DNA from: an uncultured bacterium
GTDB taxonomy: Bacteria; Omnitrophota; Omnitrophia; Omnitrophales; Aquincolibacteriaceae
DNA length: 64,000 nt
Assembly (NCBI GenBank): GCA_964606385.1
Contig: CAZSFZ010000009.1
Location: forward strand, 5,762-69,761
Reading direction: 5' to 3'
Within the stretch, counting starts at the first letter, position 1; each line of letters opens with the position of its first letter. The position numbers and the translations under genes were made by a program. The notes under the pieces were generated by a model. That model did no database searches and was not told where the DNA came from. It saw nothing but the letters and a program-made list of their open reading frames with translations. Shown here in pieces: positions 813-12,041 of this stretch.

Positions 813-1043
813 TTACAGGTCTAAAGTCCCGCCTTCCCGAAGAAGCGTGTCATTCTTTCCATAGGCTTTTTTAAAGAGGCGGACGCGCGAAAGTCCGATC
901 TTGTGCCTCCGGACGTTCTCCCAAAAAATGTCCGCCCGGCCGAATGCGTCAAACAGGACCCCGCCGACCAGGAACGAAACACCCCAGCGGAGCGTCTTCC
1001 GTTCCCGTTGCGTGGAGCCTTCCGCGATCAGACGGACCTTCAT
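813..1043 (-). CDS. Hypothetical small protein (76 aa), last gene of the minus-strand operon
   Basis: ORF overlaps the stop of the upstream gene by 4 nt (ATGA at 1040-1043). No recognisable motifs. Confidence 0.3.
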   Translation of the reverse strand: MKVRLIAEGSTQRERKTLRWGVSFLVGGVLFDAFGRADIFWENVRRHKIGLSRVRLFKKAYGKNDTLLREGGTLDL

Positions 1044-1384
1044 GGGTTTTCCAGGACCTCGGCGGCTTTACCGACGCATTCGTGACAGGGGAGTTTGCGA
1101 AGGGCCTTGATCTCTTTGCATTTCAGCGATCCCGCCGCGGCCTGAAGCTCTTCCATTCCGGGATCGAGCCGGTGCGGCAGATGTTGCTCCAGGATGCATT
1201 TCGCCGCGTAGAAAGCCCCGCAAAGTCCATCAGGCGCCATTCCGCCCCCGCACGCGCCGAGGATCGCCGCTTTCTTTTCTTCCAGCGGGAATTTACTGCG
1301 GAATGTTTCCGCGACCGACTGCGCGCAGTTCAGACGATACGGTCCTTTTTTCCCCAGGAAGTAGGCTTTTGCGGTTTCTTTCAT
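1040..1384 (-). CDS. C_GCAxxG_C_C family redox protein
   Basis: Motifs 'NCAQSV', 'GACGGGM' and 'GLCGAFYAAKC' are typical of the family. Start is at the internal ATG at 1384, after an AAAGGAAAAA RBS, giving a 4-nt ATGA overlap with the upstream thioesterase stop. The longer ORF-track start at 1624 is rejected. Confidence 0.65.
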   Translation of the reverse strand: MKETAKAYFLGKKGPYRLNCAQSVAETFRSKFPLEEKKAAILGACGGGMAPDGLCGAFYAAKCILEQHLPHRLDPGMEELQAAAGSLKCKEIKALRKLPCHECVGKAAEVLENP

Positions 1385-1845
1385 GATCCGGTTGTTTTTC
1401 CTTTGGTTTTTTGGAAGAATTTTTCGGGTTTTTCCATGAACTTTCCAGAAGCCCTCGCGACGGTCCGGCCGTTCTGGATCAATTCCGACTCCACAAGATA
1501 AAGAGGGGGGTTGATCCTTTTGATCTGCGCCCGAAGAGCGGCCTTCCCCTTGGCTTTTACGGGAAAGAGGAAGCGGACGTTGAGAGAGGCGGTCACGGCG
1601 GTTTTCCAGTGGGCAAAAAGGCAATTGGTCATGGCTCCGTCCAGCATGGCCGCGATCACACCCCCGTGGAGGAATCCATGATAACCCTGCAGCGCCGGGG
1701 CGCAGGAGAAACGCGCCTTCACGGAACCGTCCTTACAAAACAGGAAAGGGAGCTTCATGCCCCCGGAATGCTGCCTGCCGCAAATAATGCAGGAAGAATG
1801 AAAACGATCCCGGAAAAGTCTTAATTTTTGATGACCCTGTTTCAT
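1381..1845 (-). CDS. PaaI/4HBT-type hotdog-fold thioesterase
   Basis: Signature 'GFLHGGVIAAMLD'. 154 aa. Confidence 0.65.
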   Translation of the reverse strand: MKQGHQKLRLFRDRFHSSCIICGRQHSGGMKLPFLFCKDGSVKARFSCAPALQGYHGFLHGGVIAAMLDGAMTNCLFAHWKTAVTASLNVRFLFPVKAKGKAALRAQIKRINPPLYLVESELIQNGRTVARASGKFMEKPEKFFQKTKGKTTGS

Positions 1846-1878: not shown

Positions 1879-2244
1879 TTAATGGCAACCATGCTGGGAG
1901 CAGGCGTTATGGGCTGTTAATTCCTCAAGCCCCCCTTTTAAGAATTGTTGCGCGATCGCCTCGACGGTCCCGGGGATGGCGCGGTAAGCTTTGATCCCTC
2001 CCTCGTTCAATTTTTGGACGGCCCGGGCTCCCATACCGCCGGTCACGACCGCATCGATCTCTTTCCCCGTGAGGGAGGCCATCGGATGGCACATGCCGTG
2101 GCTGTGATGCTGGTTCGAATTGTCGATGATCTCGATCGCGTCTTTTTCCGTGTCATACACCGTAAAAAATGGGGCGCTACCGAAATGTTCATGCACACGG
2201 GCGGATTTTCCGTCCCGGGTCGTGGTAGGGATGCAGATCTTCAT
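1879..2244 (-). CDS. NifX/NifB-like dinitrogenase FeMo-cofactor biosynthesis domain protein
   Basis: 'KICIPTT..HFGSAPFFTVYD...IDAVVTGGMGARA' pattern. 4-nt overlap with the upstream DUF134 gene. Confidence 0.7.
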   Translation of the reverse strand: MKICIPTTTRDGKSARVHEHFGSAPFFTVYDTEKDAIEIIDNSNQHHSHGMCHPMASLTGKEIDAVVTGGMGARAVQKLNEGGIKAYRAIPGTVEAIAQQFLKGGLEELTAHNACSQHGCH

Positions 2245-2549
2245 GAAGGTTTCCTCTTCTTGTGAATGGGTTGATTTTTTGAGATCTTGAGAGCTTTGCC
2301 GTTAACGATCGCGTCCGCGACTTTTTTTCTGGCGTCAGCGATGATGTTGCCAAAAGTCTGCCTCGAAACGTTCATTTTTTTCGCGGCTTTTTCCTGATAA
2401 AGCCCCTCCAGGTCCGCGAGCCGTACGGCTTCAAATTCGTCGATCGTGAGCCCGATCTCCTGCAGGTCCGAAAGGGGAATGCCTCGGGGCTTGAAATAAT
2501 CGGCGCTCGGCATTCCGAAAACGCGCCTGCATTTAAAAGGCCGGGGCAT
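2241..2549 (-). CDS. DUF134 (UPF0251) family protein, predicted DNA-binding
   Basis: N-terminus 'MPRPFKCRRV' is diagnostic. It commonly pairs with NifX-like domain proteins in anaerobes. Confidence 0.65.
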   Translation of the reverse strand: MPRPFKCRRVFGMPSADYFKPRGIPLSDLQEIGLTIDEFEAVRLADLEGLYQEKAAKKMNVSRQTFGNIIADARKKVADAIVNGKALKISKNQPIHKKRKPS

Positions 2550-2631
2550 GGAATCGTTCCAAAGTTATTAGCATATGCCAATAATAGACCGCATCGCACT
2601 ACCTGTCAAGGGGAGGGGGCATTAAGAAAAA

Positions 2632-2661
2632 GAGGCGGTCCCGCCATGGCAGGACCGCCTC
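2632..2661 (-). terminator. Rho-independent terminator of the arsR-CoAPR-peroxiredoxin operon
   Basis: Perfect 10-bp stem gaggcggtcc/ggaccgcctc with a 10-nt loop, followed on the minus strand by a T-run (AAAAA at 2626-2630 on +). Confidence 0.55.
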
Positions 2662-2685
2662 TCCAACGAACGCGAAAGGAACCGC

Positions 2686-3468
2686 TTAGGGTTTTTTCGC
2701 TAAAGCGGCATCGACCTCTTCTTTGGGAAGTTTTTTGAAGCACATAAACCAGTCTTTGCAGTCCATGTCTTTGTCCGGATGCGTCATGCGCTCTTTTGCG
2801 ACGCCGCAGGAGCCGGCCGGCGGTACGATCACGTCATCTCCCGGGCGCCAGTCGGCGGGCGTCGCGACCTTGAACGCGTCGGAGGTCTGCATGGCTATGA
2901 GGAGGCGCTTGATCTCGTCAAAGTTACGGCCGTTCGACAGCGGGTAATAAAGGACCGCCCGGATCTTGCCCGCGGGATCGATGAAGAAAACCGCGCGTAC
3001 GGCCTGGGTATCGCTGGCCGTGGGCTGGAGCATGCCGTATTTTTTGGCCACTTCCATCTTGAGGTCTTCGATCAGGGGAAAGGTGACCTCGACATCTTTC
3101 ATGCCTTTGTATTCGATCTTTTCCTTGATCGTGCGCAGCCACGCGATATGGCTGTAGCCGCTGTCGATCGACAGACCGACGAGCTGGGTATTGAGCTTTT
3201 CAAATTCCGGCTGCAGGGTCGCGAACGTCATGAATTCGGTCGTGCAGACCGGCGTGAAATCCGCGGGATGGCTGAACAGAATGATCCATTTTCCTTTATA
3301 GTCCTCCGGAAAATTGATCATTCCTTGTGTTGTTTTGGCCGTAAAGGCGGGCGCGGCCTCTCCGATGAGCGGTAAATGCGACGCGGCCTTGACTTCTTCC
3401 GCGAAAGCGGGAACGACGGGTCCCAACAGCATGCATGCCGCCAGCAAAATCGATGTGAATGCTTTCAT
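2686..3468 (-). CDS. Secreted 1-Cys-type peroxiredoxin (Prx6-like) with a Cys-rich C-terminal extension
   Basis: 'FTPVCTTE' peroxidatic motif. Signal peptide MKAFTSILLAACMLLGPVVPAFA. ATG at 3468 is preceded by AAGGAGG. C-terminal tail 'CGVAKERMTHPDKDMDCKDWFMCF'. Confidence 0.75.
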   Translation of the reverse strand: MKAFTSILLAACMLLGPVVPAFAEEVKAASHLPLIGEAAPAFTAKTTQGMINFPEDYKGKWIILFSHPADFTPVCTTEFMTFATLQPEFEKLNTQLVGLSIDSGYSHIAWLRTIKEKIEYKGMKDVEVTFPLIEDLKMEVAKKYGMLQPTASDTQAVRAVFFIDPAGKIRAVLYYPLSNGRNFDEIKRLLIAMQTSDAFKVATPADWRPGDDVIVPPAGSCGVAKERMTHPDKDMDCKDWFMCFKKLPKEEVDAALAKKP

Positions 3469-3502
3469 GTAAACCTCCTTCGAGGTGGGTTGAAAAGTTG
3501 TT

Positions 3503-5956
3503 TTAAATGAAAAGATTGACGTTGCCGTTCTCCGCGCGGTCAAGGTACATCGCGACGCCGCCTGTTTCCACGCCGTCGATCAATTCCTCGAGCTTGATCC
3601 CCATGAGGTCCATGGACATCGAGCAGGCGACCAGCTTCGCGCCCGCGGCCTTCGCGCTCATGATCAATTCCGTGAGCGAGGCCACGTTCTTTTTCTTCAT
3701 GATGCCTTTGATCATCTGAAGGCCCATCCCGCCCATGTTCATCTTGGAAAGGGCGAGCTTCTCGGGGCCTTTCGGCATCATGAATCCAAACATGCGCTCG
3801 ACGAGATTTTTTTTCACCGGCCCGGATTTGGGTTTTCTGAGGACGTTTAGGCCCCAGAAGGTAAAGAACATCGTGACTTCGCTGCCCATGGCGAGGGCGC
3901 CGTTGGCGATCACAAAGGCGGCCATTACTTTGTCGAAATCGGAACTGAACACAACGATCGTTTTTTTCTTCGGGTCCCCGGAGGGGGCGTTCGCGGCCAT
4001 GGGATTCTCCTTTTTCCGGATCGTCGCCTGGTATTTCCCGGCGGCGGGTTTTAGTTCGATCAGTTCATTTCCCGTGCTTTGGCACCAGGAGCGGATATCG
4101 CTCACAAATCCCGGGTCCGTCGCGGAGATCCGGAGCGCCTCTCCGTCCCGGAGCTTTTCGATCTCGTTTTTGACGCGGAGGATCGGGCCGGGGCACTGCA
4201 GGCCGCACGCGTCGACTTCTTTGGAAAGCATCACAGGCCCTGACGCGTCCGCGGGGACGTTGTCGCGGGCGCCCGTATCGTCTTTCATTTCCGCGGACAC
4301 GGGTTTTTGGGGAAGAAGTCCGAGGCTGGCCTGGTAGGTGTCGTAGCCGCCGGTCAGGTTCCTGCATTTGAAACCGTTCTGGGACAGGATGCGGCAGGCG
4401 AGATAACCCCGCAGGCCCACTTTACAATACGCGAGATATTCTTTTTCCTTCGAGAGTTCGCCGAGCCGCCCCCGGAGTTCGTGAAGCGGGATATGGAGCG
4501 CCCCCGGGATCATCCCCGAAGTCACTTCCTCGGCGGTGCGTATGTCCAGCACCTGCTGATCTTTTTTCGGATGCGTGGCGTCCTCGGGATGGCAAACAAG
4601 GACATCCTTGCGGAGGACGTTCGCCGCGGCAAAACCGGCGTAATTAACAGGGTCCTTGGCGGAACCATAGGGAGGAGCATAGGAAAGCTCCATATCTTCC
4701 AGATTGTAGACCGTGAGCCCCGCGCGAAGGGCCGTCGCGATCACATCGATACGCTTGTCCACACCGTCCGCCCCAACCGCCTGCGCGCCCAGGATCTTGC
4801 CGCTTTGCGGGTCAAAGATAAGTTTGAGGTTGATGGGAGAAGCACCGGGGTAATAACTCGCGTGCGAAGCGGCATGTACATAGATCTTTTCGTAAGGGAT
4901 CTTGAGCCGTTTCAAAGTCTTTTCGCTTGCCCCGGTCATGCCGATCGAAAGGCCGAAGACCTTGCAGATCGCAGTGCCCTGTGTGTTCTTGTAAGACGAG
5001 AGCCTTCCGAAAATATTGTCCGCAGCGATACGGCCCTGCCGGTTCGCCGGCCCCGCGAGGGGGATCAGGGCTGATTCGGCCGTGACGAGATCCTTCACTT
5101 CGACCGCGTCGCCGACAGCAAAAATAGAGGGATCGCTGGTCCGCATATATTCATCCACCAGGATGCCGCCGCGCGTTCCGGTCTTAAGTCCGGCTTCTTT
5201 TGCGAGTTTGATTTCGGGTTTGACGCCGATCGCGAGGACCGCGAAACTGCAAGCCAGGGATTCTCCCGTGCTGAGTTCCGCTCGGAGCCCGGAATGTTCT
5301 TCACGGAATGCCTTTACGGAAGTTCCGAGGCGCAGGTCGACCCCGTGGAGCGTGAGTTCCTGATGAAGAGGTGCGGCCATTTCGGGGTCCGCGGGCCCCA
5401 TGACCTGTCTGGTCAGCTCGACCAAAGTGACGGGGACCTGTTTTTCTCTCAAGGCCTCCGCCATTTCAAGGCCGATATAACCGCCTCCCACGATCAGGAC
5501 CGGACCGTTTGCGCGTGAAGCGATCTCCTTTTTGATCGCGTCCATATCGGGAATACTGCGCAAGGTGAGGACCTTTTTGGAGTCTATGCCCGGGATCGGG
5601 GGGCGAACAGGTTCCGCGCCGGGGCTTAATATAAGGAAGTCGTAGGGTTCCTTGCGCTCGATCCCGGTCGTGAGTTCCCGCGCGACGACCTGTTTTTGAG
5701 CCGGATCGATCCGCAGGACTTCCGTCCGGACGCGGACGTCGATATTGAAATTCTTCCGCATGCTTTCCGGGCTTTGGACGATGAGACGTTCGCGGTCGGG
5801 GATTACGCCGCCGATGTGGTAGGGAAGTCCGCAATTCGCGAACGAGATATGCTCGCCGCGCTCAAACAGGATGATATCGGCTTTTTCCGAAAGACGGCGC
5901 GCGCGGGCCGCCGCCGAGGCCCCTCCGGCCACGCCTCCTACGATCAAAATACGCAT
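3503..5956 (-). CDS. CoA-disulfide/CoA-persulfide reductase fused to rhodanese, TusA and DsrE domains (CoAPR plus CstA-like module)
   Basis: N-terminal FAD/NAD(P) disulfide oxidoreductase ('MRILIVGGVAGGASAA', 'CGLPY'), then rhodanese 'AYCKVGLRGY', then TusA 'CGLQCPGPIL', then DsrE-like 'IVVFSSDFDKVMAAFVIANGA...TMFFTFWG'. 817 aa. Confidence 0.8.
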   Translation of the reverse strand: MRILIVGGVAGGASAAARARRLSEKADIILFERGEHISFANCGLPYHIGGVIPDRERLIVQSPESMRKNFNIDVRVRTEVLRIDPAQKQVVARELTTGIERKEPYDFLILSPGAEPVRPPIPGIDSKKVLTLRSIPDMDAIKKEIASRANGPVLIVGGGYIGLEMAEALREKQVPVTLVELTRQVMGPADPEMAAPLHQELTLHGVDLRLGTSVKAFREEHSGLRAELSTGESLACSFAVLAIGVKPEIKLAKEAGLKTGTRGGILVDEYMRTSDPSIFAVGDAVEVKDLVTAESALIPLAGPANRQGRIAADNIFGRLSSYKNTQGTAICKVFGLSIGMTGASEKTLKRLKIPYEKIYVHAASHASYYPGASPINLKLIFDPQSGKILGAQAVGADGVDKRIDVIATALRAGLTVYNLEDMELSYAPPYGSAKDPVNYAGFAAANVLRKDVLVCHPEDATHPKKDQQVLDIRTAEEVTSGMIPGALHIPLHELRGRLGELSKEKEYLAYCKVGLRGYLACRILSQNGFKCRNLTGGYDTYQASLGLLPQKPVSAEMKDDTGARDNVPADASGPVMLSKEVDACGLQCPGPILRVKNEIEKLRDGEALRISATDPGFVSDIRSWCQSTGNELIELKPAAGKYQATIRKKENPMAANAPSGDPKKKTIVVFSSDFDKVMAAFVIANGALAMGSEVTMFFTFWGLNVLRKPKSGPVKKNLVERMFGFMMPKGPEKLALSKMNMGGMGLQMIKGIMKKKNVASLTELIMSAKAAGAKLVACSMSMDLMGIKLEELIDGVETGGVAMYLDRAENGNVNLFI

Positions 5957-5957
5957 G

Positions 5958-6260
5958 TTAATCCTCCTCCGAACAACTTTTCTTGATGCAGTTCAAAACA
6001 TTCAGGACTTGCGGGCGGGCCAGAGAATAATAACGGAAATTGCAATCGGCCTCGCTCGCGAGGATGCCGGCCTTCTTTAAAAGGGCGAGGTGTTTTGAGA
6101 TCACGGCCTGGGGCAGGTCGAGCCGAGTAGCCAGTTCACCAACGGCGGAACGCCGGGAACGGAGCATTTCCACGATCCGCAGGCGGTCCGGGTGCGCCAG
6201 GACCCGCAGTTTTTTCGCGGCCCGTGCAAGCGTCTTGGGGTCGATCGGGATCTTTTTCAT
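5958..6260 (-). CDS. ArsR/SmtB-family transcriptional regulator with C-terminal cysteines
   Basis: 'LAHPDRLRIVEMLRS..VGELA..L.LPQAVISKHLALLKKAGIL' wHTH. Cys residues lie in 'ADCNF' and 'LNCIKKSCSEED'. Its stop abuts the CoAPR start (5956/5958). Confidence 0.7.
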   Translation of the reverse strand: MKKIPIDPKTLARAAKKLRVLAHPDRLRIVEMLRSRRSAVGELATRLDLPQAVISKHLALLKKAGILASEADCNFRYYSLARPQVLNVLNCIKKSCSEED

Positions 6261-6363
6261 GTTGACAATATACTAATTTTGGAATATATAAGTCAAGGAA
6301 TATTTAACCGAGACGTTCGGCGCGGCTTCGGCCGGTGATCCTTACTGATAAAACAGGTTTTCA

Positions 6364-7791
6364 ATGACGAAGAAACTCTTTAAGATAGAGGCCATGATCC
6401 AGAAGATCCTTTCCCTTGTCCTGCCGGTCATGCTTTTGGCCGTGCAACCGGTGTTCGCTGAAACGCCCGTCACGACGGATCAGACATGCATCGAAAAGCT
6501 GACCTTCCTTGATTTTTACCAAAAAGTTCTCGCGCATTATCCTGCACTAAAAAAACAGTACGAGAAGATCGCGCAGGCGAAGGCCCAGCGCAATCTCGCG
6601 ATATCCGACCTTTTTCCGCACGTCCAGGGCGTGTTCTCCACCGTGACGACCGATGACCCGGTCGGCGTTTTCGGGGACCTTTTGCGCCAGCAAAAATTCA
6701 CCCAGAATGATTTTTCGCTGGAGTCGCTCAACCGGCCCGATGCCCGCACGAATTACCACGTGGGGATCGAAGGGGAGATGCTGCTTTTTGATTCTTTTAA
6801 TACGATCTCAAAGATCCGCTCGGCCCGCCGGATGGTCAAGTCCGCCGACCTTGAAGCGGATTTCACGGAAATGGAGGCGGGGATCGTGGCGCTTGAAAGT
6901 TACCTCGGGCTCCTTCTCGCGCAGGAGAACTTCGATATCGTCTCGGGCGTCAAATCCGAAAGCGATCAGGATATCCGGCAGGCCGAAGACCTGAAGGAAA
7001 AAGGGATGATCCTCGGGGCGGATTATTACGCGGCCCGCGTGATCGCGGCTTCGATCGAACGCGAATACCACCGTTCGGAGGCCCTCCTCAAAAGCTCCCG
7101 CATGCTCATGAATATCCTGATGGGCGCGGACCCGGGCCTCGCGTGGGACCCCGTGGGAAAACTTCCCGAGATCAAACGGGAAGCGGTCGACCTCCGGGTC
7201 TGGCTCGCGCAGTCCTACCAGCAACGGAAAGACCTTGCCGCGATGGACCAAATGGTGGACGCGGCGCGCATCGAATCGTTCCGCCAGAAAACATCCTTTC
7301 TCCCAAAATTCTACGGTTTCGGAAGTCTTAATGAAGACGCGAACACCTGGCGCTCGGGCGGCGAGAATTTCACGGTGGGGTTCAAGGGGACCATGGATTT
7401 TCTTGATCCCGCGCTCCCGGGAAGGATCCAGAAGGCCAAGCATCAATATGAAGAGCTCAAGGCCGACCGGCAGGCGCTCCGGGACGCGATCGTCAAGGAC
7501 CTGGTGCTGGAATTGGCCCGGTATGAATCCGCGACCGCCGACCAGCCCGTCCTGAAACAGGCCGCGCAGGACGCGCAGCAGGCGAGCGAACAGACGGCCA
7601 AGCTTTATCAGGAGGGACGGAAATCCATCGCGGACCTTCTGGAGATCCGCCGCCTGCATCTGGACACCACTTCCGGTTTCCGGAGCCTCCTTATGGCGCT
7701 GGAGCTGGAGTACGCCAAATTATTATTCCTTTCCGGCCAGCTTGATGAAAACGGGCTTCGACAAGTCAACGAACGATTCAATAACCAGTAA
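6364..7791 (+). CDS. TolC-family outer membrane efflux protein (OMF)
   Basis: 475 aa with signal peptide; two repeat halves of coiled-coil/beta-barrel type. Upstream divergent promoter contains TTGACA. Confidence 0.75.
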   Translation: MTKKLFKIEAMIQKILSLVLPVMLLAVQPVFAETPVTTDQTCIEKLTFLDFYQKVLAHYPALKKQYEKIAQAKAQRNLAISDLFPHVQGVFSTVTTDDPVGVFGDLLRQQKFTQNDFSLESLNRPDARTNYHVGIEGEMLLFDSFNTISKIRSARRMVKSADLEADFTEMEAGIVALESYLGLLLAQENFDIVSGVKSESDQDIRQAEDLKEKGMILGADYYAARVIAASIEREYHRSEALLKSSRMLMNILMGADPGLAWDPVGKLPEIKREAVDLRVWLAQSYQQRKDLAAMDQMVDAARIESFRQKTSFLPKFYGFGSLNEDANTWRSGGENFTVGFKGTMDFLDPALPGRIQKAKHQYEELKADRQALRDAIVKDLVLELARYESATADQPVLKQAAQDAQQASEQTAKLYQEGRKSIADLLEIRRLHLDTTSGFRSLLMALELEYAKLLFLSGQLDENGLRQVNERFNNQ

Positions 7792-7829
7792 CACCTACGA
7801 GGTGTAGAGACACCACACCTCGTAGGTGT
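7791..7829. repeat. Perfect 15-bp-stem inverted repeat between the OMF stop and the RND RBS
   Basis: acacctacgaggtgt-agagacacc-acacctcgtaggtgt. No T-run follows, and an RBS (gagaagg) plus ATG at 7848 come next. Confidence 0.5.
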
Positions 7830-7847
7830 GAGAAGGTAACGGTTCCT

Positions 7848-10800
7848 ATGTCCCAACATCATCATTCCGATATCATCAGCGGGATCGTCAGTTATTTCGC
7901 CAAATCCAAGATCACGCCGCTCATTATCGCGGTGTCGATCGTGCTCGGCGTTTTCGCGGTCATGAACCTGCCGCGGGAGGAAGAACCGCAGATCTCGGTG
8001 CCGATGTTCGATATTTTCGTGTCCTATCCCGGCGCGGATTCCAAAGAAGTCGAGCAACGGATCGTCACACTTGGAGAGAGAAAGCTCTGGGAGATCCCCG
8101 GCGTGGAATACGTGTACTCCACGATCGAGCCGGAAGGCGCGCTTATCATCGTGCGGTTCAAGGTCGGCGAAGACCCCGAAAAGAGCCTGATCAAGCTCTA
8201 TACCAAAGTTTATTCCAATCTCGATTTCCTGCCTCAGGGCGCGACCCAGCCTTTCATTAAAGTCCGTTCGATCGACGATGTGCCGATCCTGACGCTGACC
8301 TTCCATTCCAAGGACAAGGATCCGGTGACGCTGCGGCGCACGGTCGCCAATATCCAGAACGTCGTGAATGCCATTCCGGATGTGTCCGAGACCCACATCA
8401 CGGGCGGGCGCAAACGCCAGTTCCAGGTCTTTTTCGACGAAGAAAAGCTCAGGGCCCGTCTTTTGAACCCTCTCGAGATCGCGCAGATCATCCGTTCGGC
8501 GAACGTGAAACAGGCCGCCGGTCATCTGGAAAGATCGCCGGAACTTGAATCGGTGGAAGCGAATTCGTTTTTCCGAACGAAGTCCGACCTTGAAAACCTC
8601 GTGGTCGGCGTCAGCGCCGGAAGCGTTGTGACCCTGAAAGACATCGCGAAGGTCGTTGACGGGCCGGACGAGGAAGAGCGGGCGGCCGGGATCTTCTTCG
8701 GACCTGCGTCGAAGGCCGCGGACAAAGGACCTTTTCAGGCGGTAACACTCTCGATCTCAAAACGCAAGGGCGCCAATGCCGCGCATCTTTCGGAAGTGAT
8801 CCTGCATGCCATCAAGGAATTGCCGGAATCAACGCTTCCAAAGGATATCGAAATGACCGTGACGCGGGACTACGGCGAGACCGCCAAAGAAAAATCCGAC
8901 GAACTGCTTTTTCATATGGCGATTGCGGTCTTCGGCGTGAGCCTTTTGATCGCCTGGTCGCTCGGGCTCCGGGAATCGGGGGTCGTGGCGATTGCGATCC
9001 CGATGACGCTCGCCTTGACGCTCGCCACCTTTTATTTTCTCGGGTTCACGCTGAACCGCATCACGCTTTTCGCGCTGATCTTTTCGATCGGTATCCTGGT
9101 CGATGACCCGATCGTGGATGTCGAGAATATCGTGCGCCACCTCCGGCTTCCCAATAACAAAGGGAAATCCATCCTGGATATTACGATCGAGGCCGTGAAT
9201 GAGGTCCGCAGCCCCTTGATCCTCGCGACGCTTACGGTGATCGCGGCGATCCTGCCGATGGCTTTTGTGAGCGGGCTCATGGGGCCTTACATGCGGCCGA
9301 TCCCGATCGGGGCGAGCGCGGCGATGATGTTCTCGATGTTCGTGGCTTTTGTCGCGACCCCCTGGGCCGCGTATCAGATCCTGGGGAAAGCCTTCGCGCA
9401 AGGGAAACTCAAGGCACACCATGAAGGGGAAAAGGAAGATTTTCTTACGCGTCTTTACCGCTCGTACATGAACCCGCTGATCTTTAATCCCAAGGTCCGT
9501 AAATTTTTTCTGATCGGACTGGGCGGCGCCTTGATCCTCGCGATGGCCCTCGTGCCGCTCAAATTGGTCCGGATGAAGATGCTGCCCTTTGATAACAAGA
9601 ACGAGTTCCAGGTTATCCTCAATATGCCGGACGGCGCTTCGCTTGAAGCGACGCAAAAAGCGATCACCGAGATCGCGGATTATCTCGTGACGGTCCCCGA
9701 GGTGAAGGATATCGAGATGTATGTGGGGTCTGCCGCGCCTTACAACTTTAACGGGCTGGTTCGGCATTATTTCCTCCGTTCGAAGCCGCATCAGGCCGAC
9801 CTTCAGGTGAATCTTGCCGGGAAACATGACCGCAAACGGCAAAGCCACGACATTGCTAAAGCGGTGCGTCCGAAGATCCATGAGATCGTGGAAAAATACA
9901 AAGGTCATGTCCAGGTGGCGGAGGTCCCGCCAGGTCCGCCGGTCCTTTCAACCCTCGTGCTTGAGATCTACGGCCCCACGCTCGCCGGACAGCAAGAGCT
10001 TGCCAAGCAGATCGAAGGCCTGCTGGCCTCGGCGGAAGGCGTGACCGATATCGATACCTATGTCCGGGAGCCCGAGAAACTCGCGCGGCTGAGGGTCAAT
10101 ACGGAAAAGGCGTCGCTGAACGGCATTCCCGTGGATCAGATCGCCACGGCCATCACGGCCGCCGTAGGCGGGAAGACCGTGGACCTCGCGCACTTGTCGG
10201 AGGAATACGAACCCGTGGAGATCCTCCTGAGGCTGCCGAAAGAAAAACGCGCCGGGCTTGATAGTGTGCTCAATATGACGCTTCTGTCGCGTTACGGTAA
10301 TCCGATCCCGGTCCGCGAACTGGTCCATGTCGAGAAGGACCGGAAGGACCTTGCGATCTATCACAAGAACCTGATGCGCGTTTCCTATGTGATCGCGGAC
10401 GTGGCGGGGAAATACGAAAGCCCGGCGTACGCGATCCTGAAACTGAAAAAAGAGATCGCGCAGATCCCGGCGCCGGAAAATCATGAAGGACAAAGAACGG
10501 TCGACCAGATCTTTAACGGCCAGCCCAAAACGGCGGACCGCTGGACCTTGAAATGGGACGGGGAATGGCAGATCACGTACGAAGTGTTCCGGGACCTCGG
10601 GATCGCGTTCGCGTTCGTCCTGCTCCTGATCTACGCGCTCGTGGTCGGCTGGTTCCAGTCGTTCAAGACGCCCTGGATCATCATGCTGCCGATCCCGCTC
10701 ACGTTGATCGGGATCCTGCCGGCCCATTGGCTCGGCGGTGTTTTCTTCACGGCGACTTCCATGATCGGCATGATCGCCGGCGCGGGGATCGTGGTGCGGA

Positions 10801-11087
10801 ATTCGATCATCCTGGTGGATTTTATCGAACTGCGTCGCGCCGAGGGCATGCCCCTCGAGGAAGCCGTGATCGACGCGGGCGCGAAGCGTTTCAGGCCGAT
10901 GCTTCTGACGGCCGCGGCGGTCGTGGTCGGGGCTTCGGTGATCCTCTTCGATCCGATCTTTCAGGGATTGGCCGTGGCGCTGATGGCGGGCGAGATCGCT
11001 TCGACGATCCTGTCGCGCACGGCAGTGCCGGTTTTCTATTACATGATGGCTAAAAAAGAAAAAATCTCGGGGAACGTGGAACGTTGA
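7848..11087 (+). CDS. RND-superfamily efflux permease (AcrB/CzcA-type)
   Basis: 1079 aa with 12-TM/2-loop architecture. 'GILVDDPIVDVENIVRH' motif. The C-terminal 6 aa (SGNVER) are encoded by a GGAACG heptamer repeat. Confidence 0.85.
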   Translation: MSQHHHSDIISGIVSYFAKSKITPLIIAVSIVLGVFAVMNLPREEEPQISVPMFDIFVSYPGADSKEVEQRIVTLGERKLWEIPGVEYVYSTIEPEGALIIVRFKVGEDPEKSLIKLYTKVYSNLDFLPQGATQPFIKVRSIDDVPILTLTFHSKDKDPVTLRRTVANIQNVVNAIPDVSETHITGGRKRQFQVFFDEEKLRARLLNPLEIAQIIRSANVKQAAGHLERSPELESVEANSFFRTKSDLENLVVGVSAGSVVTLKDIAKVVDGPDEEERAAGIFFGPASKAADKGPFQAVTLSISKRKGANAAHLSEVILHAIKELPESTLPKDIEMTVTRDYGETAKEKSDELLFHMAIAVFGVSLLIAWSLGLRESGVVAIAIPMTLALTLATFYFLGFTLNRITLFALIFSIGILVDDPIVDVENIVRHLRLPNNKGKSILDITIEAVNEVRSPLILATLTVIAAILPMAFVSGLMGPYMRPIPIGASAAMMFSMFVAFVATPWAAYQILGKAFAQGKLKAHHEGEKEDFLTRLYRSYMNPLIFNPKVRKFFLIGLGGALILAMALVPLKLVRMKMLPFDNKNEFQVILNMPDGASLEATQKAITEIADYLVTVPEVKDIEMYVGSAAPYNFNGLVRHYFLRSKPHQADLQVNLAGKHDRKRQSHDIAKAVRPKIHEIVEKYKGHVQVAEVPPGPPVLSTLVLEIYGPTLAGQQELAKQIEGLLASAEGVTDIDTYVREPEKLARLRVNTEKASLNGIPVDQIATAITAAVGGKTVDLAHLSEEYEPVEILLRLPKEKRAGLDSVLNMTLLSRYGNPIPVRELVHVEKDRKDLAIYHKNLMRVSYVIADVAGKYESPAYAILKLKKEIAQIPAPENHEGQRTVDQIFNGQPKTADRWTLKWDGEWQITYEVFRDLGIAFAFVLLLIYALVVGWFQSFKTPWIIMLPIPLTLIGILPAHWLGGVFFTATSMIGMIAGAGIVVRNSIILVDFIELRRAEGMPLEEAVIDAGAKRFRPMLLTAAAVVVGASVILFDPIFQGLAVALMAGEIASTILSRTAVPVFYYMMAKKEKISGNVER

Positions 11088-11153: not shown

Positions 11154-11363
11154 ATGACCATAGAAAAATCGATCCCTATCATGGCCGGGTCTTTTATCCT
11201 GATCAGCCTTGCGTTGGCGGTCTGGGTGAACAAGTGGTGGCTTCTCTGGACGGCCTTTGTCGGCGTGAACCTGGTCCAGTCCGCGATCACGGGGTGGTGC
11301 CCCGCGGAAGGCCTTCTTAAAAAACTCGGCATGAAAAACTGTTGCCCCAGCCCTGAGAAATAA
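11154..11363 (+). CDS. DUF2892 (YgaP-like) small membrane protein
   Basis: 69 aa, 2 TM, conserved 'GWCPAEGLLKKLG' (GxCP motif). Confidence 0.6.
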   Translation: MTIEKSIPIMAGSFILISLALAVWVNKWWLLWTAFVGVNLVQSAITGWCPAEGLLKKLGMKNCCPSPEK

Positions 11364-11393
11364 TCGCATCACGCCATTTCCTAGGAGGTGTTT

Positions 11394-12041
11394 ATGAAAA
11401 TGATCCGTTCCTTTGCGTGTTTGGTGGTTTCTTTCATGATCATGGCCGCGTGCGTGATGGCTCCTGCGGTTTTGGCGGCGACGAGTACGGAAGGAAAGAA
11501 AAGCCTTCTCGCGCTCGGCAGCGAAGCGCCTGATTTCGCACTGCCGGATGTGGTGACCGGGGAGCTTGTGAGCCGGGACGATTTCAAGGACGCGGACGCG
11601 CTCCTCGTCGTGATCCTTTGCCGGCATTGCCCGTACGTGAAACACATCCGTCCCGATCTTGTGAAGTTCGGCAAGGATTACGCGGGCAAGAGCCTCGCGA
11701 TCGTCGGGATCAGCGCGAACGATCCGGTCGCTTACCCGGAGGACGGCCCGGAAAGCCTCAAGGAAATGGCCGTAAGCGAAGGTTTCACATTTCCCATCCT
11801 TTTTGACGGGACCCAGGAGGTCGCGAAGGCCTACACGGCGGTCGCTACGCCGGATTTTCTTCTCTTTGACAAGGACCGAAAACTTGTTTACCGGGGCCAG
11901 TATGATGACGCCCGGCCGGGGAGCAAGACACCCGTCACCGGCAAGGACCTTCGCGCTGCGGTGGACGCGGTGCTTGCGGGGGAGCCCGTCCCTGCAGACC
12001 AGCAACACGCGATCGGCTGTTCCGTTAAATGGAAAAAATAG
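11394..12041 (+). CDS. Periplasmic thioredoxin-like thiol:disulfide oxidoreductase (TlpA/redoxin family)
   Basis: Signal peptide. 'CRHCPYVKH' has a CxxC-like spacing. AGGAGG RBS lies 6 nt before the ATG at 11394. Confidence 0.65.
   Translation: MKMIRSFACLVVSFMIMAACVMAPAVLAATSTEGKKSLLALGSEAPDFALPDVVTGELVSRDDFKDADALLVVILCRHCPYVKHIRPDLVKFGKDYAGKSLAIVGISANDPVAYPEDGPESLKEMAVSEGFTFPILFDGTQEVAKAYTAVATPDFLLFDKDRKLVYRGQYDDARPGSKTPVTGKDLRAAVDAVLAGEPVPADQQHAIGCSVKWKK

Follow-up and report, generated by a model that had tools for sequence, protein, structure and literature searches.

A minus-strand ArsR-reductase-peroxiredoxin locus of an uncultured Omnitrophota bacterium with a putative role in sulfane-sulfur removal

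The window analyzed here, a 64-kb stretch of DNA from an uncultured anaerobe of the Omnitrophota, contains three minus-strand open reading frames where the original prediction had placed them: arsR (6260..5958, 100 aa), the gene for an 817-aa four-domain flavoprotein in which an Npsr/CoADR-RHD-type reductase is joined to TusA and DsrE domains (5956..3503), and a peroxiredoxin (Prx) gene (3468..2686, 260 aa) with AhpC-TSA and 1-cysPrx_C domains. Domain E values of 1e-12 to 1e-62 indicate that these gene and domain assignments are not due to chance. A single base separates the TAA stop of arsR (5960-5958) from the start codon of the 817-aa gene (ATG, 5956), so that the two abut translationally, as predicted, and GGAGGAGGA lies immediately 5' of that ATG. 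The Prx gene begins 34 nt downstream of the 817-aa gene, with no hairpin in the intervening sequence. The predicted clean terminator was found just beyond the coordinates originally given, at 2664..2629 on the minus strand, and consists of a 16-bp stem with 10 G-C pairs, a 4-nt loop, and a T-run. With gene gaps of 1 and 34 nt and only one promoter and one terminator, the three genes form an operon. A separate promoter match for the DUF134 gene, TTGACA-17-TATTAT at 2609..2581, lies beyond the terminator.

The 103-bp intergenic region (6261-6363) contains a promoter match on the minus strand, TTGACT-18-TATATT at 6296..6267 (10 of 12 positions), on which two overlapping operator-like palindromes are superimposed (6267..6304): O1 (6283-6304) is centered on the -35 element TTGACT (6296-6291), and O2 (6267-6288) spans the spacer and the -10 element TATATT (6272-6267). 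Their consensus is AATATTCC-N6-GGAATATT, and the palindrome block is the sole conserved stretch 5' of arsR in five Omnitrophota loci. When the 64 kb were searched with the pattern, two matches with three mismatches each were obtained, against 0.22 expected, and both lie at the arsR promoter. In one orthologous locus (L004), one copy is perfect and the other carries a single mismatch; the degeneracy of the window's own copies, at three mismatches per copy, counts against the interpretation that we favor below. We infer that ArsR would bind these palindromes. The arsR ATG lies 5 to 6 nt past the -10 element and is preceded by no Shine-Dalgarno sequence, a spacing that is kept in all five loci, and the arsR mRNA is probably leaderless. 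A divergent gene pair encoding a TolC-like outer-membrane efflux protein (OEP) and an RND transporter of the multidrug (HAE) rather than the CusA/CzcA type shares the intergenic region with arsR, and a secreted ResA/TlpA-like redoxin is also encoded in the window.

Within the 817-aa protein, Pfam annotation returned Pyr_redox_2, Rhodanese, TusA, and DrsE_2 in the predicted order. A FAD/NADH pyridine-nucleotide-disulfide oxidoreductase (PNDOR) module occupies residues 1-444 (4625..5956; Pyr_redox_2 at 1-290, 2.9e-62, and Pyr_redox_dim at 329-431) and has a single redox cysteine, Cys42, in the motif SFANCGLPYH; it is followed on the same minus-strand frame by a rhodanese domain at residues 465-543 (4328..4564; 1.6e-12) with active-site Cys511 in the loop CKVGLRG, a TusA domain at residues 579-648 (4013..4222; 2.4e-21, profile positions 1-70 of 70) with Cys588 in a CPGP motif, and a DsrE-like (DrsE_2) domain at residues 663-816 (3509..3970; 1.4e-60) with Cys778. 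These four cysteines, one per domain, are each invariant in 194 of 194 homologs, among which the remaining seven cysteines of the protein vary. Glu180, which closes the second Rossmann strand, is also invariant and suggests a preference for NADH. In the AF2 model, the TusA region shows beta-alpha-beta-alpha-beta-beta elements, and the linker ahead of it (residues 550-573) has low pLDDT and is predicted to be disordered; residues 662-817 match PDB entry 3PNX, a "putative sulfurtransferase DsrE," at 1.5e-31. The protein scores below the cutoffs of TIGR03385 CoADR (487.6 versus 578.8) and NCBIfam DsrE2 (79 versus 210 bits). Taken on its sequence, it probably reduces sulfane sulfur to sulfide in an NADH-dependent manner through a four-cysteine relay; the literature searched contained no experimental test of any four-domain family member.

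Residues 1-545 share the PNDOR plus C-terminal rhodanese architecture of Npsr from Shewanella loihica PV-4 (3NTA), with a phmmer E value of 1.5e-189 over residues 2-543 and a Foldseek TM score of 0.93 (rmsd, 1.8 Å; 54% identity). Identities to Bacillus anthracis CoADR-RHD (3ICR) and Enterococcus faecalis CoAPR (8A56) are 51% and 45%, and TM scores to the Npsr, CoADR-RHD, and CoAPR structures range from 0.93 to 0.96. The motif around Npsr Cys43 is identical to that around Cys42, and the loop of Npsr Cys531, CQVGLRG, aligns with that of Cys511, giving a common C-x-VGLRG motif. Characterized Npsr/CoADR-RHD enzymes reduce persulfides and polysulfide but not disulfides such as CoA disulfide and GSSG (PMC7969121). 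In comparison with these enzymes and CoAPR, the 817-aa protein carries some 270 additional C-terminal residues, comprising TusA and DsrE, and no solved structure spanning the reductase plus both domains was found (best query-normalized TM score, 0.65). Whereas the E. faecalis CoAPR gene is controlled by a CsoR-type CstR, an ArsR gene adjoins the reductase gene here, in support of the replacement of the one regulator by the other that had been proposed. Staphylococcus aureus CstA (Rhod-TusA-DsrE) has matching sulfur-carrier domains of all three types, likewise ordered and each bearing a cysteine, and the presence of CstA-type domains with a catalytic cysteine in each supports the predicted sulfur-relay logic. 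The suggestion that the protein merges CoADR-RHD with CstA holds for CoADR-RHD plus TusA-DsrE; there is one rhodanese domain rather than two, so that a whole CstA is not included. In contrast to CstA, the rhodanese belongs to the reductase, and the relay would thus be covalently joined to an NADH-driven sink; a persulfide dioxygenase or SQR partner is absent here, as befits an anaerobe.

The fusion had been described as unusual and set against a two-protein arrangement in Firmicutes, and neither view can be maintained. Each of the best 120 among at least 8,000 database matches combines these four domains and is about 815 to 830 aa long. A narrow pattern scan found relatives in 119 species genomes, and the 80 loci kept include Omnitrophota, Verrucomicrobiota/Kiritimatiellia, Lentisphaerota, Planctomycetota, Melainabacteria, Thermotogota, Bacteroidales, Fusobacteriota, Spirochaetota, and roughly 35 to 40 Bacillota, for example, Proteiniclasticum, Vallitalea, and Erysipelotrichaceae. 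Pcar_0429 of Pelobacter carbinolicus, described in 2012, has the same four domains, adjoins genes for periplasmic thioredoxin-fold and outer-membrane proteins, and has been put forward as the enzyme of terminal S0 reduction in that organism; it was reported among the genes most upregulated during growth with S0, a set to which an outer-membrane protein and a pair of periplasmic thioredoxins also belong (PMC3543383). In 2021, Vigneron et al. flagged a "DsrE-Npsr-TusA fusion" as a "novel gene" in metagenomes and suggested intracellular S0 reduction (PMC7887784). Both are likened to the present protein by published domain description, S0 respiration or reduction is proposed in the papers on them, and a regulator is described in neither paper (PMC3543383, PMC7887784). 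The fused enzyme is therefore a widespread and previously noticed family of thousands of proteins in many phyla and not a rarity. Its sole widely conserved neighbor among 81 loci is the ArsR gene, which directly adjoins it in at least 42, distributed over several phyla; in roughly half of the loci no ArsR gene adjoins it, and PadR, MarR, or Crp takes its place in some of these. In the Omnitrophota clade, the ArsR and fusion genes share contigs throughout. The Prx gene is linked to the fusion gene in 4 of the 81 loci, all in the Omnitrophota clade (at least nine shared contigs), and its predicted membership in the operon holds here but not generally.

By sequence, the arsR product is a 100-aa winged-helix repressor of the ArsR/SmtB family (Pfam HTH_5/HTH_20; NCBIfam HTH_metalloreg, 75.7 bits against a cutoff of 55). 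Its AF2 model has a pLDDT of 91.7 and places alpha5 at residues 85-95, and its solved-structure matches are Rv0081 (4e-12), SqrR in second place (5.5e-11), HlyU, and BigR (6e-7). The resemblance to the BigR/SqrR persulfide sensors that had been put forward fails on alignment in its alpha2 half. Within the ArsR clade of 38 proteins, C91 is conserved in 38 and C96 in 36, forming a C91-x4-C96 pair within or at the end of alpha5, whereas C73 at the wing tip is variable. The position of the alpha2 cysteine (SqrR C41) is occupied by Glu31, a residue nearly invariant across the clade, which rules out an SqrR-style polysulfide bridge between alpha2 and alpha5 of one protomer. With the BigR model the protein reaches 45 of the 155 bits required; it falls below the TsoR cutoff too, and is assigned by NCBIfam solely to a generic metalloregulator subfamily; identity as a BigR/SqrR-type sensor was rejected on the basis of Glu31 and the BigR score. 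In a gap-free extension of the alignment, the C-terminal alpha5 cysteine falls within about one residue of SqrR C107; the second cysteine, unlike the alpha2 cysteine of SqrR and BigR, is C91, which precedes it by five residues on that helix. This conserved pair keeps thiol-based sensing plausible, but it could equally suit metal or metalloid binding or peroxide sensing. SqrR, BigR, and HlyU (ArsR SSN cluster 4) share the ArsR fold and a comparable setting, known persulfide-sensing ArsRs adjoining sulfurtransferase and persulfide-reducing genes (PMC10054925). No experimental test of any ArsR of this clade was found in the literature searched.

A mechanical open reading frame list had begun the Prx gene at TTG 3543. 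This start was rejected in favor of ATG 3468, which has the ribosome-binding site GAAGGAGG and matches a gene call made independently on the same contig in the public record (likewise 260 aa); the Prx and 817-aa genes are thus free of overlap. The product scores 331 bits against the PRK13189 cutoff of 211 in NCBIfam and is, from its motifs, a Prx6-type (1-Cys-class) protein: the peroxidatic cysteine lies in PADFTPVCTTE, and PVCTTE, the 1-cysPrx_C domain, and a C-terminal cysteine pair (C-x6-C) are shared with the Prx6 proteins 5OVQ and those of Aeropyrum pernix and Pyrococcus horikoshii. It is set apart from these by a Sec-type signal peptide (residues 1-23, nucleotides 3468-3400; MKAFTSILLAACMLLGPVVPAFA, with predicted cleavage before EE), an N-terminal extension relative to the solved cytoplasmic Prx6 proteins; the 5OVQ alignment begins at residue 31. 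A comparable hydrophobic extension is present in 98 of the 120 closest Prx homologs. The signal peptide points to export, in support of the predicted exported Prx closing the operon.

We suggest, with a probability of roughly 0.55, that the locus is an autorepressed, thiol-sensed operon for reductive removal of sulfane sulfur (persulfide and polysulfide) coupled with periplasmic peroxide defense. The enzyme part of this interpretation derives from the domain matches, the similarity to Npsr, the invariant cysteines, and the disordered linkers, and the regulator part derives from ArsR adjacency, the conservation of C91 and C96, the unique conserved palindromes, the SqrR match, and the gene neighborhoods of known persulfide-sensing ArsRs. 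The reported upregulation of Pcar_0429 on S0 is in keeping with induction by sulfur. Glu31, the scores below the BigR and TsoR cutoffs, and the many loci in which ArsR adjacency is missing speak against this interpretation. A resting ArsR dimer on both palindromes would block transcription of arsR, the reductase gene, and prx; accumulating persulfides, polysulfides, or another thiol oxidant would modify C91 and C96, probably by linking them through a disulfide or polysulfide where the protomers of the dimer meet, and the modified repressor would leave the DNA. The 817-aa enzyme would then act as Npsr, CoADR-RHD, or CoAPR do, with electrons passing from NADH through FAD to Cys42, probably kept in mixed-disulfide linkage to bound CoA, and this center would reduce the persulfide on rhodanese Cys511 with release of H2S. 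The flexibly linked TusA (Cys588) and DsrE (Cys778) domains may form a CstA-like relay within the reductase itself, gathering the sulfane sulfur of polysulfide, thiosulfonates, or low-molecular-weight persulfides and handing it over to Cys511, although sulfur flow through TusA/DsrE in the reverse order was proposed by Aklujkar et al. (PMC3543383).

The same chemistry might instead be catabolic, with the protein acting as a cytoplasmic S0 or polysulfide reductase, an NADH-reoxidizing electron sink or terminal reductase that would serve sulfur respiration or sulfur-facilitated fermentation and not detoxification, and with the exported thioredoxin-fold protein and nearby outer-membrane and efflux proteins handling periplasmic polysulfide. 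The S0-induced Pcar_0429, the intracellular S0 reduction suggested by Vigneron et al., the origin of the closest solved relative, Npsr, in a sulfur-respiring Shewanella, and the concentration of the four-domain family in fermentative anaerobes are in keeping with such a role, as is the company kept in the window, where a periplasmic thioredoxin-fold Prx, the divergent OEP-RND pair, and the ResA/TlpA-like redoxin are all encoded. We nevertheless regard it as a possible but rather unlikely explanation: three genes under tight autorepression, one of them for a stress-type thiol peroxidase, resemble a stress regulon, the four-domain gene has no conserved neighbor in the 81 loci that could act as a membrane-bound or energy-conserving partner, and the OEP-RND neighborhood is not kept in sister loci, in which ArsR-fusion adjacency persists.

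This persistence also bears on the proposal that ArsR senses a metal or metalloid through its alpha5 site, sulfur-enzyme adjacency being incidental or the divergent OEP-RND efflux genes being the chief target. The generic metalloregulator assignment, the shared intergenic region, and the use of alpha5, the classical metal site of the family, by the cysteines of atypical As(III) sensors (PMC10054925) are compatible with it, but As(III) sites use three cysteines and only two are conserved, the RND protein is of the multidrug type, and no ars or metal-transport genes are present here; we consider it very improbable. An oxidative- or disulfide-stress operon, in which ArsR would sense peroxide or another oxidant by RexT-like logic, Prx would be the main effector, and the flavoprotein would use NADH to regenerate reduced CoA or protein thiols, is also doubtful, if less so. 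The predicted cotranscription of Prx, an OsmC gene beside the ArsR-fusion pair in one other lineage, a thioredoxin gene upstream in locus L037, and the reported proximity of peroxide-sensing ArsR clusters to NADH oxidoreductases (PMC10054925) speak for it. However, peroxide defense has no use for the three added sulfur-carrier domains and their invariant cysteines, the characterized relatives are inactive on CoA disulfide and GSSG, the alpha3 cysteine pair of RexT is missing from ArsR, and Prx, whose link is limited to one clade, would be exported while the flavoprotein is cytoplasmic, leaving no direct redox partnership.

Against the sulfane-sulfur removal interpretation, Prx in the operon and OsmC beside ArsR elsewhere point towards oxidant stress rather than sulfide. 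In the detoxifying role proposed for the operon, the exported Prx would remove periplasmic peroxides, which are formed side by side with sulfane sulfur where sulfidic anoxic habitats meet oxygen.

The locus is a three-gene operon on the minus strand closed by a terminator, and the coordinates originally proposed for it proved accurate apart from the start of the peroxiredoxin (Prx) gene. The 100-aa regulator gene arsR (6260..5958) ends in a TAA stop codon and is separated by one base from the ATG at 5956 of the 817-aa gene (5956..3503), the ribosome-binding site of which, GGAGGAGGA, lies within the 3' end of arsR. The prx gene is present as predicted, and its start required correction: TTG 3543, taken from a mechanical ORF list and overlapping the 817-aa gene, was ruled out in favor of ATG 3468 because this codon is directly preceded by a strong ribosome-binding site (GAAGGAGG), because the identical contig in the public record carries an independently called gene for the same 260-aa product, and because that product begins with a canonical signal peptide. 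The real gap between the two genes is therefore 34 nt, and it is free of hairpins. The terminator is a hairpin with a G+C-rich stem of 16 bp followed by a T-run (2664..2629, minus strand), and a separate strong promoter match at 2609..2581 serves the next gene set, which encodes a DUF134 protein and a NifX-like protein.

The 817-aa product is a fusion of four domains, with Pfam E values between 1e-12 and 1e-62: a pyridine nucleotide-disulfide oxidoreductase (PNDOR) region (residues 1-431; Pyr_redox_2, 2.9e-62; Pyr_redox, 1.1e-17; Pyr_redox_dim, 3.2e-14), a rhodanese domain (465-543), a TusA domain matched over the whole length of the profile (579-648), and a DrsE_2 domain (663-816). A sequence search of solved structures paired residues 2-543 with Shewanella loihica Npsr (E = 1.5e-189), followed by the Bacillus anthracis CoADR-RHD and the Enterococcus faecalis CoA-persulfide reductase (CoAPR), and residues 662-817 with the DsrE-like protein 3PNX (1.5e-31). 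The AlphaFold2 model, built with 51 homologues, has a mean pLDDT of 82 and four well-defined domains joined by low-confidence linkers at 550-573 and 653-661; it contains the secondary-structure elements expected of the TusA and DsrE folds, which together with the strong sequence homology supports the presence of both. Foldseek superimposed the first ~560 residues on Npsr (3NTA) with a TM score of 0.93, an rmsd of 1.8 A, and 54% identity, the corresponding identities being 51% for CoADR-RHD and 45% for CoAPR; in the same search, no PDB entry matched the whole four-domain architecture.

As judged from these comparisons, the protein has the architecture and predicted catalytic motifs of the Npsr/CoADR-RHD class, that is, of class I PNDORs with a C-terminal rhodanese. 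Characterized members of this class bind CoA tightly and carry out NADH-dependent reduction of persulfide or polysulfide rather than disulfide (PMC7969121). Residue-level alignment showed that the motifs at both Npsr catalytic cysteines are shared, SFANCGLPYH being identical and the second conforming to C-(K/Q)-VGLRG: C42 occupies the position of Npsr Cys43, and C511, in CKVGLRG, aligns with the Npsr Cys531 loop CQVGLRG. Across an alignment of 194 full-length homologues, each domain has one invariant cysteine, 4 of the 11 in all: C42 (194/194), C511, C588 in a CPGP motif, and C778. This pattern is characteristic of a cysteine persulfide relay, here one that would end at the flavin-linked reductase, and the sulfur-relay enzyme of the original prediction is real and conserved in its domains and its four cysteines. 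CstA (Rhod-TusA-DsrE) has the same domain order and a conserved cysteine in each domain, a likeness drawn from domain composition. Two names were rejected. The score against the CoA-disulfide reductase equivalog TIGR03385 (487.6 bits) falls below the cutoff of 578.8, so that "persulfide reductase type" is the safer designation, and the score against the DsrE2 equivalog NF047629 (79.4 bits; cutoff, 210) makes the last domain DsrE-like (DrsE_2) and not DsrE2 proper.

The fusion had been called unusual, a view that did not survive comparison; it is very common and neither rare nor new. The best 120 of at least 8,000 scored protein matches all have this set of Pfam domains and measure ~808 to 870 aa, save two shorter and apparently partial entries, and the closest relatives among the matches listed are from Omnitrophota (77 to 81% identity). 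A narrow scan by DNA pattern, run on a single genome for each species, confirmed 119 relatives, of which 80 loci were kept; these represent Omnitrophota, Planctomycetota, Verrucomicrobiota/Kiritimatiellia, Lentisphaerota, Fibrobacterota, Melainabacteria, Thermotogota, Bacteroidales, Fusobacteriota, Spirochaetota, Endomicrobia, and ~35 to 40 Bacillota. Given the last figure, the statement that Firmicutes divide the function between two proteins is not generally true. The architecture has also been published: Aklujkar et al. [quoted passage not shown] (2021; PMC7887784) provide a second genome-level mention. Literature searches for experiments on the fusion, which covered CoADR-RHD/TusA/DsrE, CoAPR, Npsr fusions, and Pcar_0429, yielded only these two genome-level mentions, and fusions of this sort are not discussed in the E. 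faecalis CoAPR paper or the SqrR preprint.

ArsR-family control of the fusion gene, by contrast with its supposed rarity, gained support from the survey of neighboring genes, in which ORFs were called in 81 loci and clustered. A gene for an ArsR-type protein of ~100 aa is the sole widely shared neighbor and directly adjoins the fusion gene in at least 42 of the 81 loci, upstream and codirectional in 28 and divergent in 12. Contigs found by exact protein look-up added more cases of the pairing and other loci that have no regulator. Alternatives in the regulator position are PadR (Thermotogota), a MarR-like protein (Bacteroidales), and Crp (Acetivibrionales); the adjacent genes that were inspected in other lineages included neither CsoR nor CstR. 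The Prx gene, predicted as an operon member, keeps that status in Omnitrophota, where ArsR, fusion, and Prx homologues lie on the same longest contigs of at least nine assemblies, and loses it elsewhere: it is linked to the fusion gene in 4 of the 81 loci, all in the Omnitrophota clade, and is a lineage-specific addition to the module.

Several other genes recur near the fusion gene. An order OsmC-ArsR (HTH_5)-four-domain gene occupies 4062-7472 of comparison loci L084/L085, from a 3.8-Mb genome, and is a second case in which a thiol peroxidase, here cytoplasmic, is joined to the ArsR-reductase pair. A PTPS/QueD-like gene lies in the window at 94-588 on the plus strand (Pfam PTPS, 3e-13; QueD model under its cutoff), ~2.1 kb past prx and on the opposite strand; homologues with 46% identity lie 21 to 27 nt downstream of the four-domain gene and codirectional with it in seven Melainabacteria/Gastranaerophilales loci (L055, L062, L071, and L073-L076), and L063 is an eighth case, at the 3' end of the fusion gene and overlapping it in the ORF call, so that the association recurs across phyla. 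Small Nitro_FeMo-Co (NifX-like) proteins are encoded near the four-domain gene in seven loci (the window, L003, L004, L058, L061, L063, and L072). In the window the NifX-like gene and the DUF134 DNA-binding protein gene (1879-2549, minus strand) form a pair with its own promoter, and in L058 and L061 the gene immediately preceding the fusion gene encodes a NifX-like domain joined to an N-terminal extension. Downstream of the window's NifX-like gene, three ORFs overlap end to end (1040-1845, minus strand) and encode a hotdog-fold thioesterase (4HBT), a putative C_GCAxxG_C_C redox protein, and a 76-aa product; the proximity of a CoA thioesterase to a CoA-dependent persulfide reductase could be significant or coincidental. 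Immediately after the fusion gene, Pontiella loci encode a DUF302 protein (L007, 5031-5489, by Pfam match; L006, 2877-3485, by a close homologue), and a Leptotrichiaceae locus encodes an extra single-domain rhodanese (L029, 5741-6079).

The regulator is a bona fide member of the ArsR/SmtB family (HTH_metalloreg, 75.7 bits; cutoff, 55), and its AlphaFold2 model (pLDDT, 91.7) has the fold a1-a2-a3-a4-b1-b2-a5, with a1 at residues 8-21, a2 at 24-32, a3 at 40-47, a4 at 51-63, the wing at 67-80, and a5 at 85-95. Among solved structures SqrR was the second-best match, followed by HlyU and BigR. In the persulfide-sensing ArsR cluster, cysteines of alpha2 and alpha5 form an intraprotomer polysulfide bridge (PMC10054925). 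The alpha2 alignment (SqrR LMIMCYL and HlyU LQILCML versus LRIVEML) places Glu31 at the position of the first of these (SqrR C41/BigR C42), and among the 38 members of this ArsR's clade Glu31 is nearly invariant. The model puts C96 at the end of alpha5, and gapless extension of an alignment that reaches only residue 94, and is thus uncertain in register, puts it within ~1 residue of the position of SqrR C107 (BigR C108). Scores against the BigR equivalog (45.3 bits; cutoff, 155) and TsoR (49.8 bits; cutoff, 115) are low. Because of Glu31 and these scores, we place the protein outside the SqrR/BigR/HlyU persulfide-sensor class (SSN cluster 4), and the suggested resemblance to BigR and SqrR does not extend to the sensing residues. 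Nothing relevant was found in the literature on TsoR, the second-closest specific ArsR model in NCBIfam.

The clade has cysteines of its own: C91 is conserved in 38/38 members and C96 in 36/38, within the motif L-N-C-I-K-K-S-C at the end of alpha5, and C73 at the tip of the wing is variable. The same C-x4-C motif occurs in fusion-adjacent ArsRs of two Phycisphaerae/Sedimentisphaerales loci. A comparison of partner regulators that took in loci L023, L026, L042-L056, and L062-L076 showed that those of Firmicutes and Melainabacteria conserve other cysteines, at the equivalents of positions 38 and 46 plus 28 (Firmicutes) or 44 (Melainabacteria), and that the verrucomicrobial set differs again. The partner ArsRs are thus all cysteine rich in lineage-specific ways, a pattern that fits thiol-based sensing having arisen more than once and that does not in itself fix the inducer. 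More tentatively, and we lean somewhat against the full proposal, these regulators could be independently evolved sulfane-sulfur sensors that lack the SqrR/BigR alpha2-alpha5 dithiol, with an alpha5 C-x4-C pair possibly cross-linking the dimer interface in Omnitrophota and Phycisphaerae and an alpha3 pair in Firmicutes and Melainabacteria, and could form with the enzyme the main anaerobic, reductive counterpart of the aerobic SQR/PDO modules for sulfide detoxification, a pairing that would then operate in thousands of fermentative anaerobes, including Melainabacteria and Erysipelotrichaceae of the gut.

The intergenic region of 103 bp that precedes arsR contains a promoter match, TTGACT-18-TATATT (6296..6267). 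Alignment of the window with four orthologous loci revealed a single conserved block, AATATTCC-TTGACT-GG-AATATTCC-N6-GGTATATT, with the ATG 5 to 6 nt later; sequence further upstream is divergent in the five loci. The block consists of two overlapping 8-6-8 palindromes of the form AATATTCC-N6-GGAATATT, one centered on the -35 element (6283-6304) and the other over the spacer and -10 element (6267-6288). The L004 block has one perfect copy and one with a single mismatch; in the window each copy has three mismatches, and the two are the sole matches in 64 kb, with 0.22 expected. These operator-like palindromes emerged from the comparison of the five orthologous promoters and from pattern searches; an inverted-repeat search with a seed of 6 over 6240-6380 found none. 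Occupancy of these sites by a repressor would shut out RNA polymerase, and autoregulation by ArsR, whose binding we infer, is the natural reading of the putative operator. In all five Omnitrophota loci the arsR ATG lies 5 to 6 nt past the -10 hexamer with no Shine-Dalgarno sequence (window 6260-6272, minus strand); since the ATG stands at the expected transcription start, the arsR message is probably leaderless in each. On the opposite strand, TTGACA-17-TATATA (6262-6290, plus strand) overlaps the palindromes as a possible face-to-face divergent promoter toward the outer membrane efflux protein (OEP) gene at 6364; it was seen by eye, fails the -10 rule of the scan, and has no conserved counterpart in the sister loci, where the divergent OEP gene is missing.

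The product of prx is a Prx6-type protein (PRK13189, 331 bits; cutoff, 211) with a 1-cysPrx_C domain and, by alignment to 5OVQ, a PVCTTE peroxidatic motif and a C-terminal cysteine pair. Its first ~23 residues (MK, a hydrophobic core, and AFA|EE) are additional to the solved cytoplasmic homologues. A hydrophobic N-terminal extension, scored by a simple length-and-hydropathy criterion, is present in 98 of the 120 closest database relatives (P0159-P0278), so exported Prx6 proteins appear to be a common and large subfamily across uncultured anaerobe phyla. Anchoring as a lipoprotein (LAAC, residues 9-12) was rejected, since the cysteine is not conserved in orthologues and the AFA|EE cleavage context is. 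Given its predicted export, the Prx would not exchange electrons directly with the cytoplasmic flavoprotein. At 11154-12041 (plus strand) the window encodes a 69-aa YgaP-like transmembrane protein and then, at 11388-12041, a secreted ResA/TlpA-like thioredoxin-fold protein, which might reduce the Prx in the periplasm or handle polysulfide. YgaP-like domains are usually attached to a rhodanese.

We consider an autorepressed sulfane-sulfur reductase operon to be the best-supported model, with a probability of roughly 0.55. Its main rival assigns the same chemistry to catabolism, with S0 or polysulfide reduction serving as an electron sink. As summarized in PMC3543383, Pcar_0429 was among the genes most upregulated on S0, alongside two periplasmic thioredoxins and an outer membrane protein, and periplasmic thioredoxin-fold and outer membrane proteins are likewise encoded near the present operon; even so, we regard the catabolic reading as rather unlikely. 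Weaker still is an oxidant-stress operon, which we judge improbable. That ArsR senses a metal is the weakest proposal, and we give it very little credence: the divergent genes at 6364-11087 (plus strand) encode a TolC-like OEP (475 aa) followed directly by a 1,079-aa RND permease of the multidrug type, which led us to reject control of heavy-metal efflux, and sister loci do not keep this pair at the corresponding position. No membrane fusion (adaptor) gene lies between or beside the two.

The original interpretation thus holds for the relay enzyme and for ArsR control and fails for the rarity of the fusion, the BigR/SqrR sensing residues, and a general linkage to Prx. The locus holds a predicted persulfide reductase module under a thiol-repressor candidate of an unstudied ArsR sensor type; the enzyme fusion is itself unstudied, though previously noticed. 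Reactive sulfur species are now regarded as important signals and stressors, and the characterized sensor and detoxification modules (CstR-cst, SqrR/BigR, and FisR) are mainly those of aerobes and pathogens and employ oxidative enzymes; for strict anaerobes the route must be reductive. The four-domain Npsr-TusA-DsrE protein abounds in these organisms, and its recurrent pairing with a cysteine-bearing ArsR constitutes a directly testable sensor-effector pair, of which this locus, with its defined putative operator, two-cysteine sensor candidate, and predicted four-cysteine relay, is a clean example. The gain would be incremental, extending known chemistry and known regulator families without introducing a new principle.
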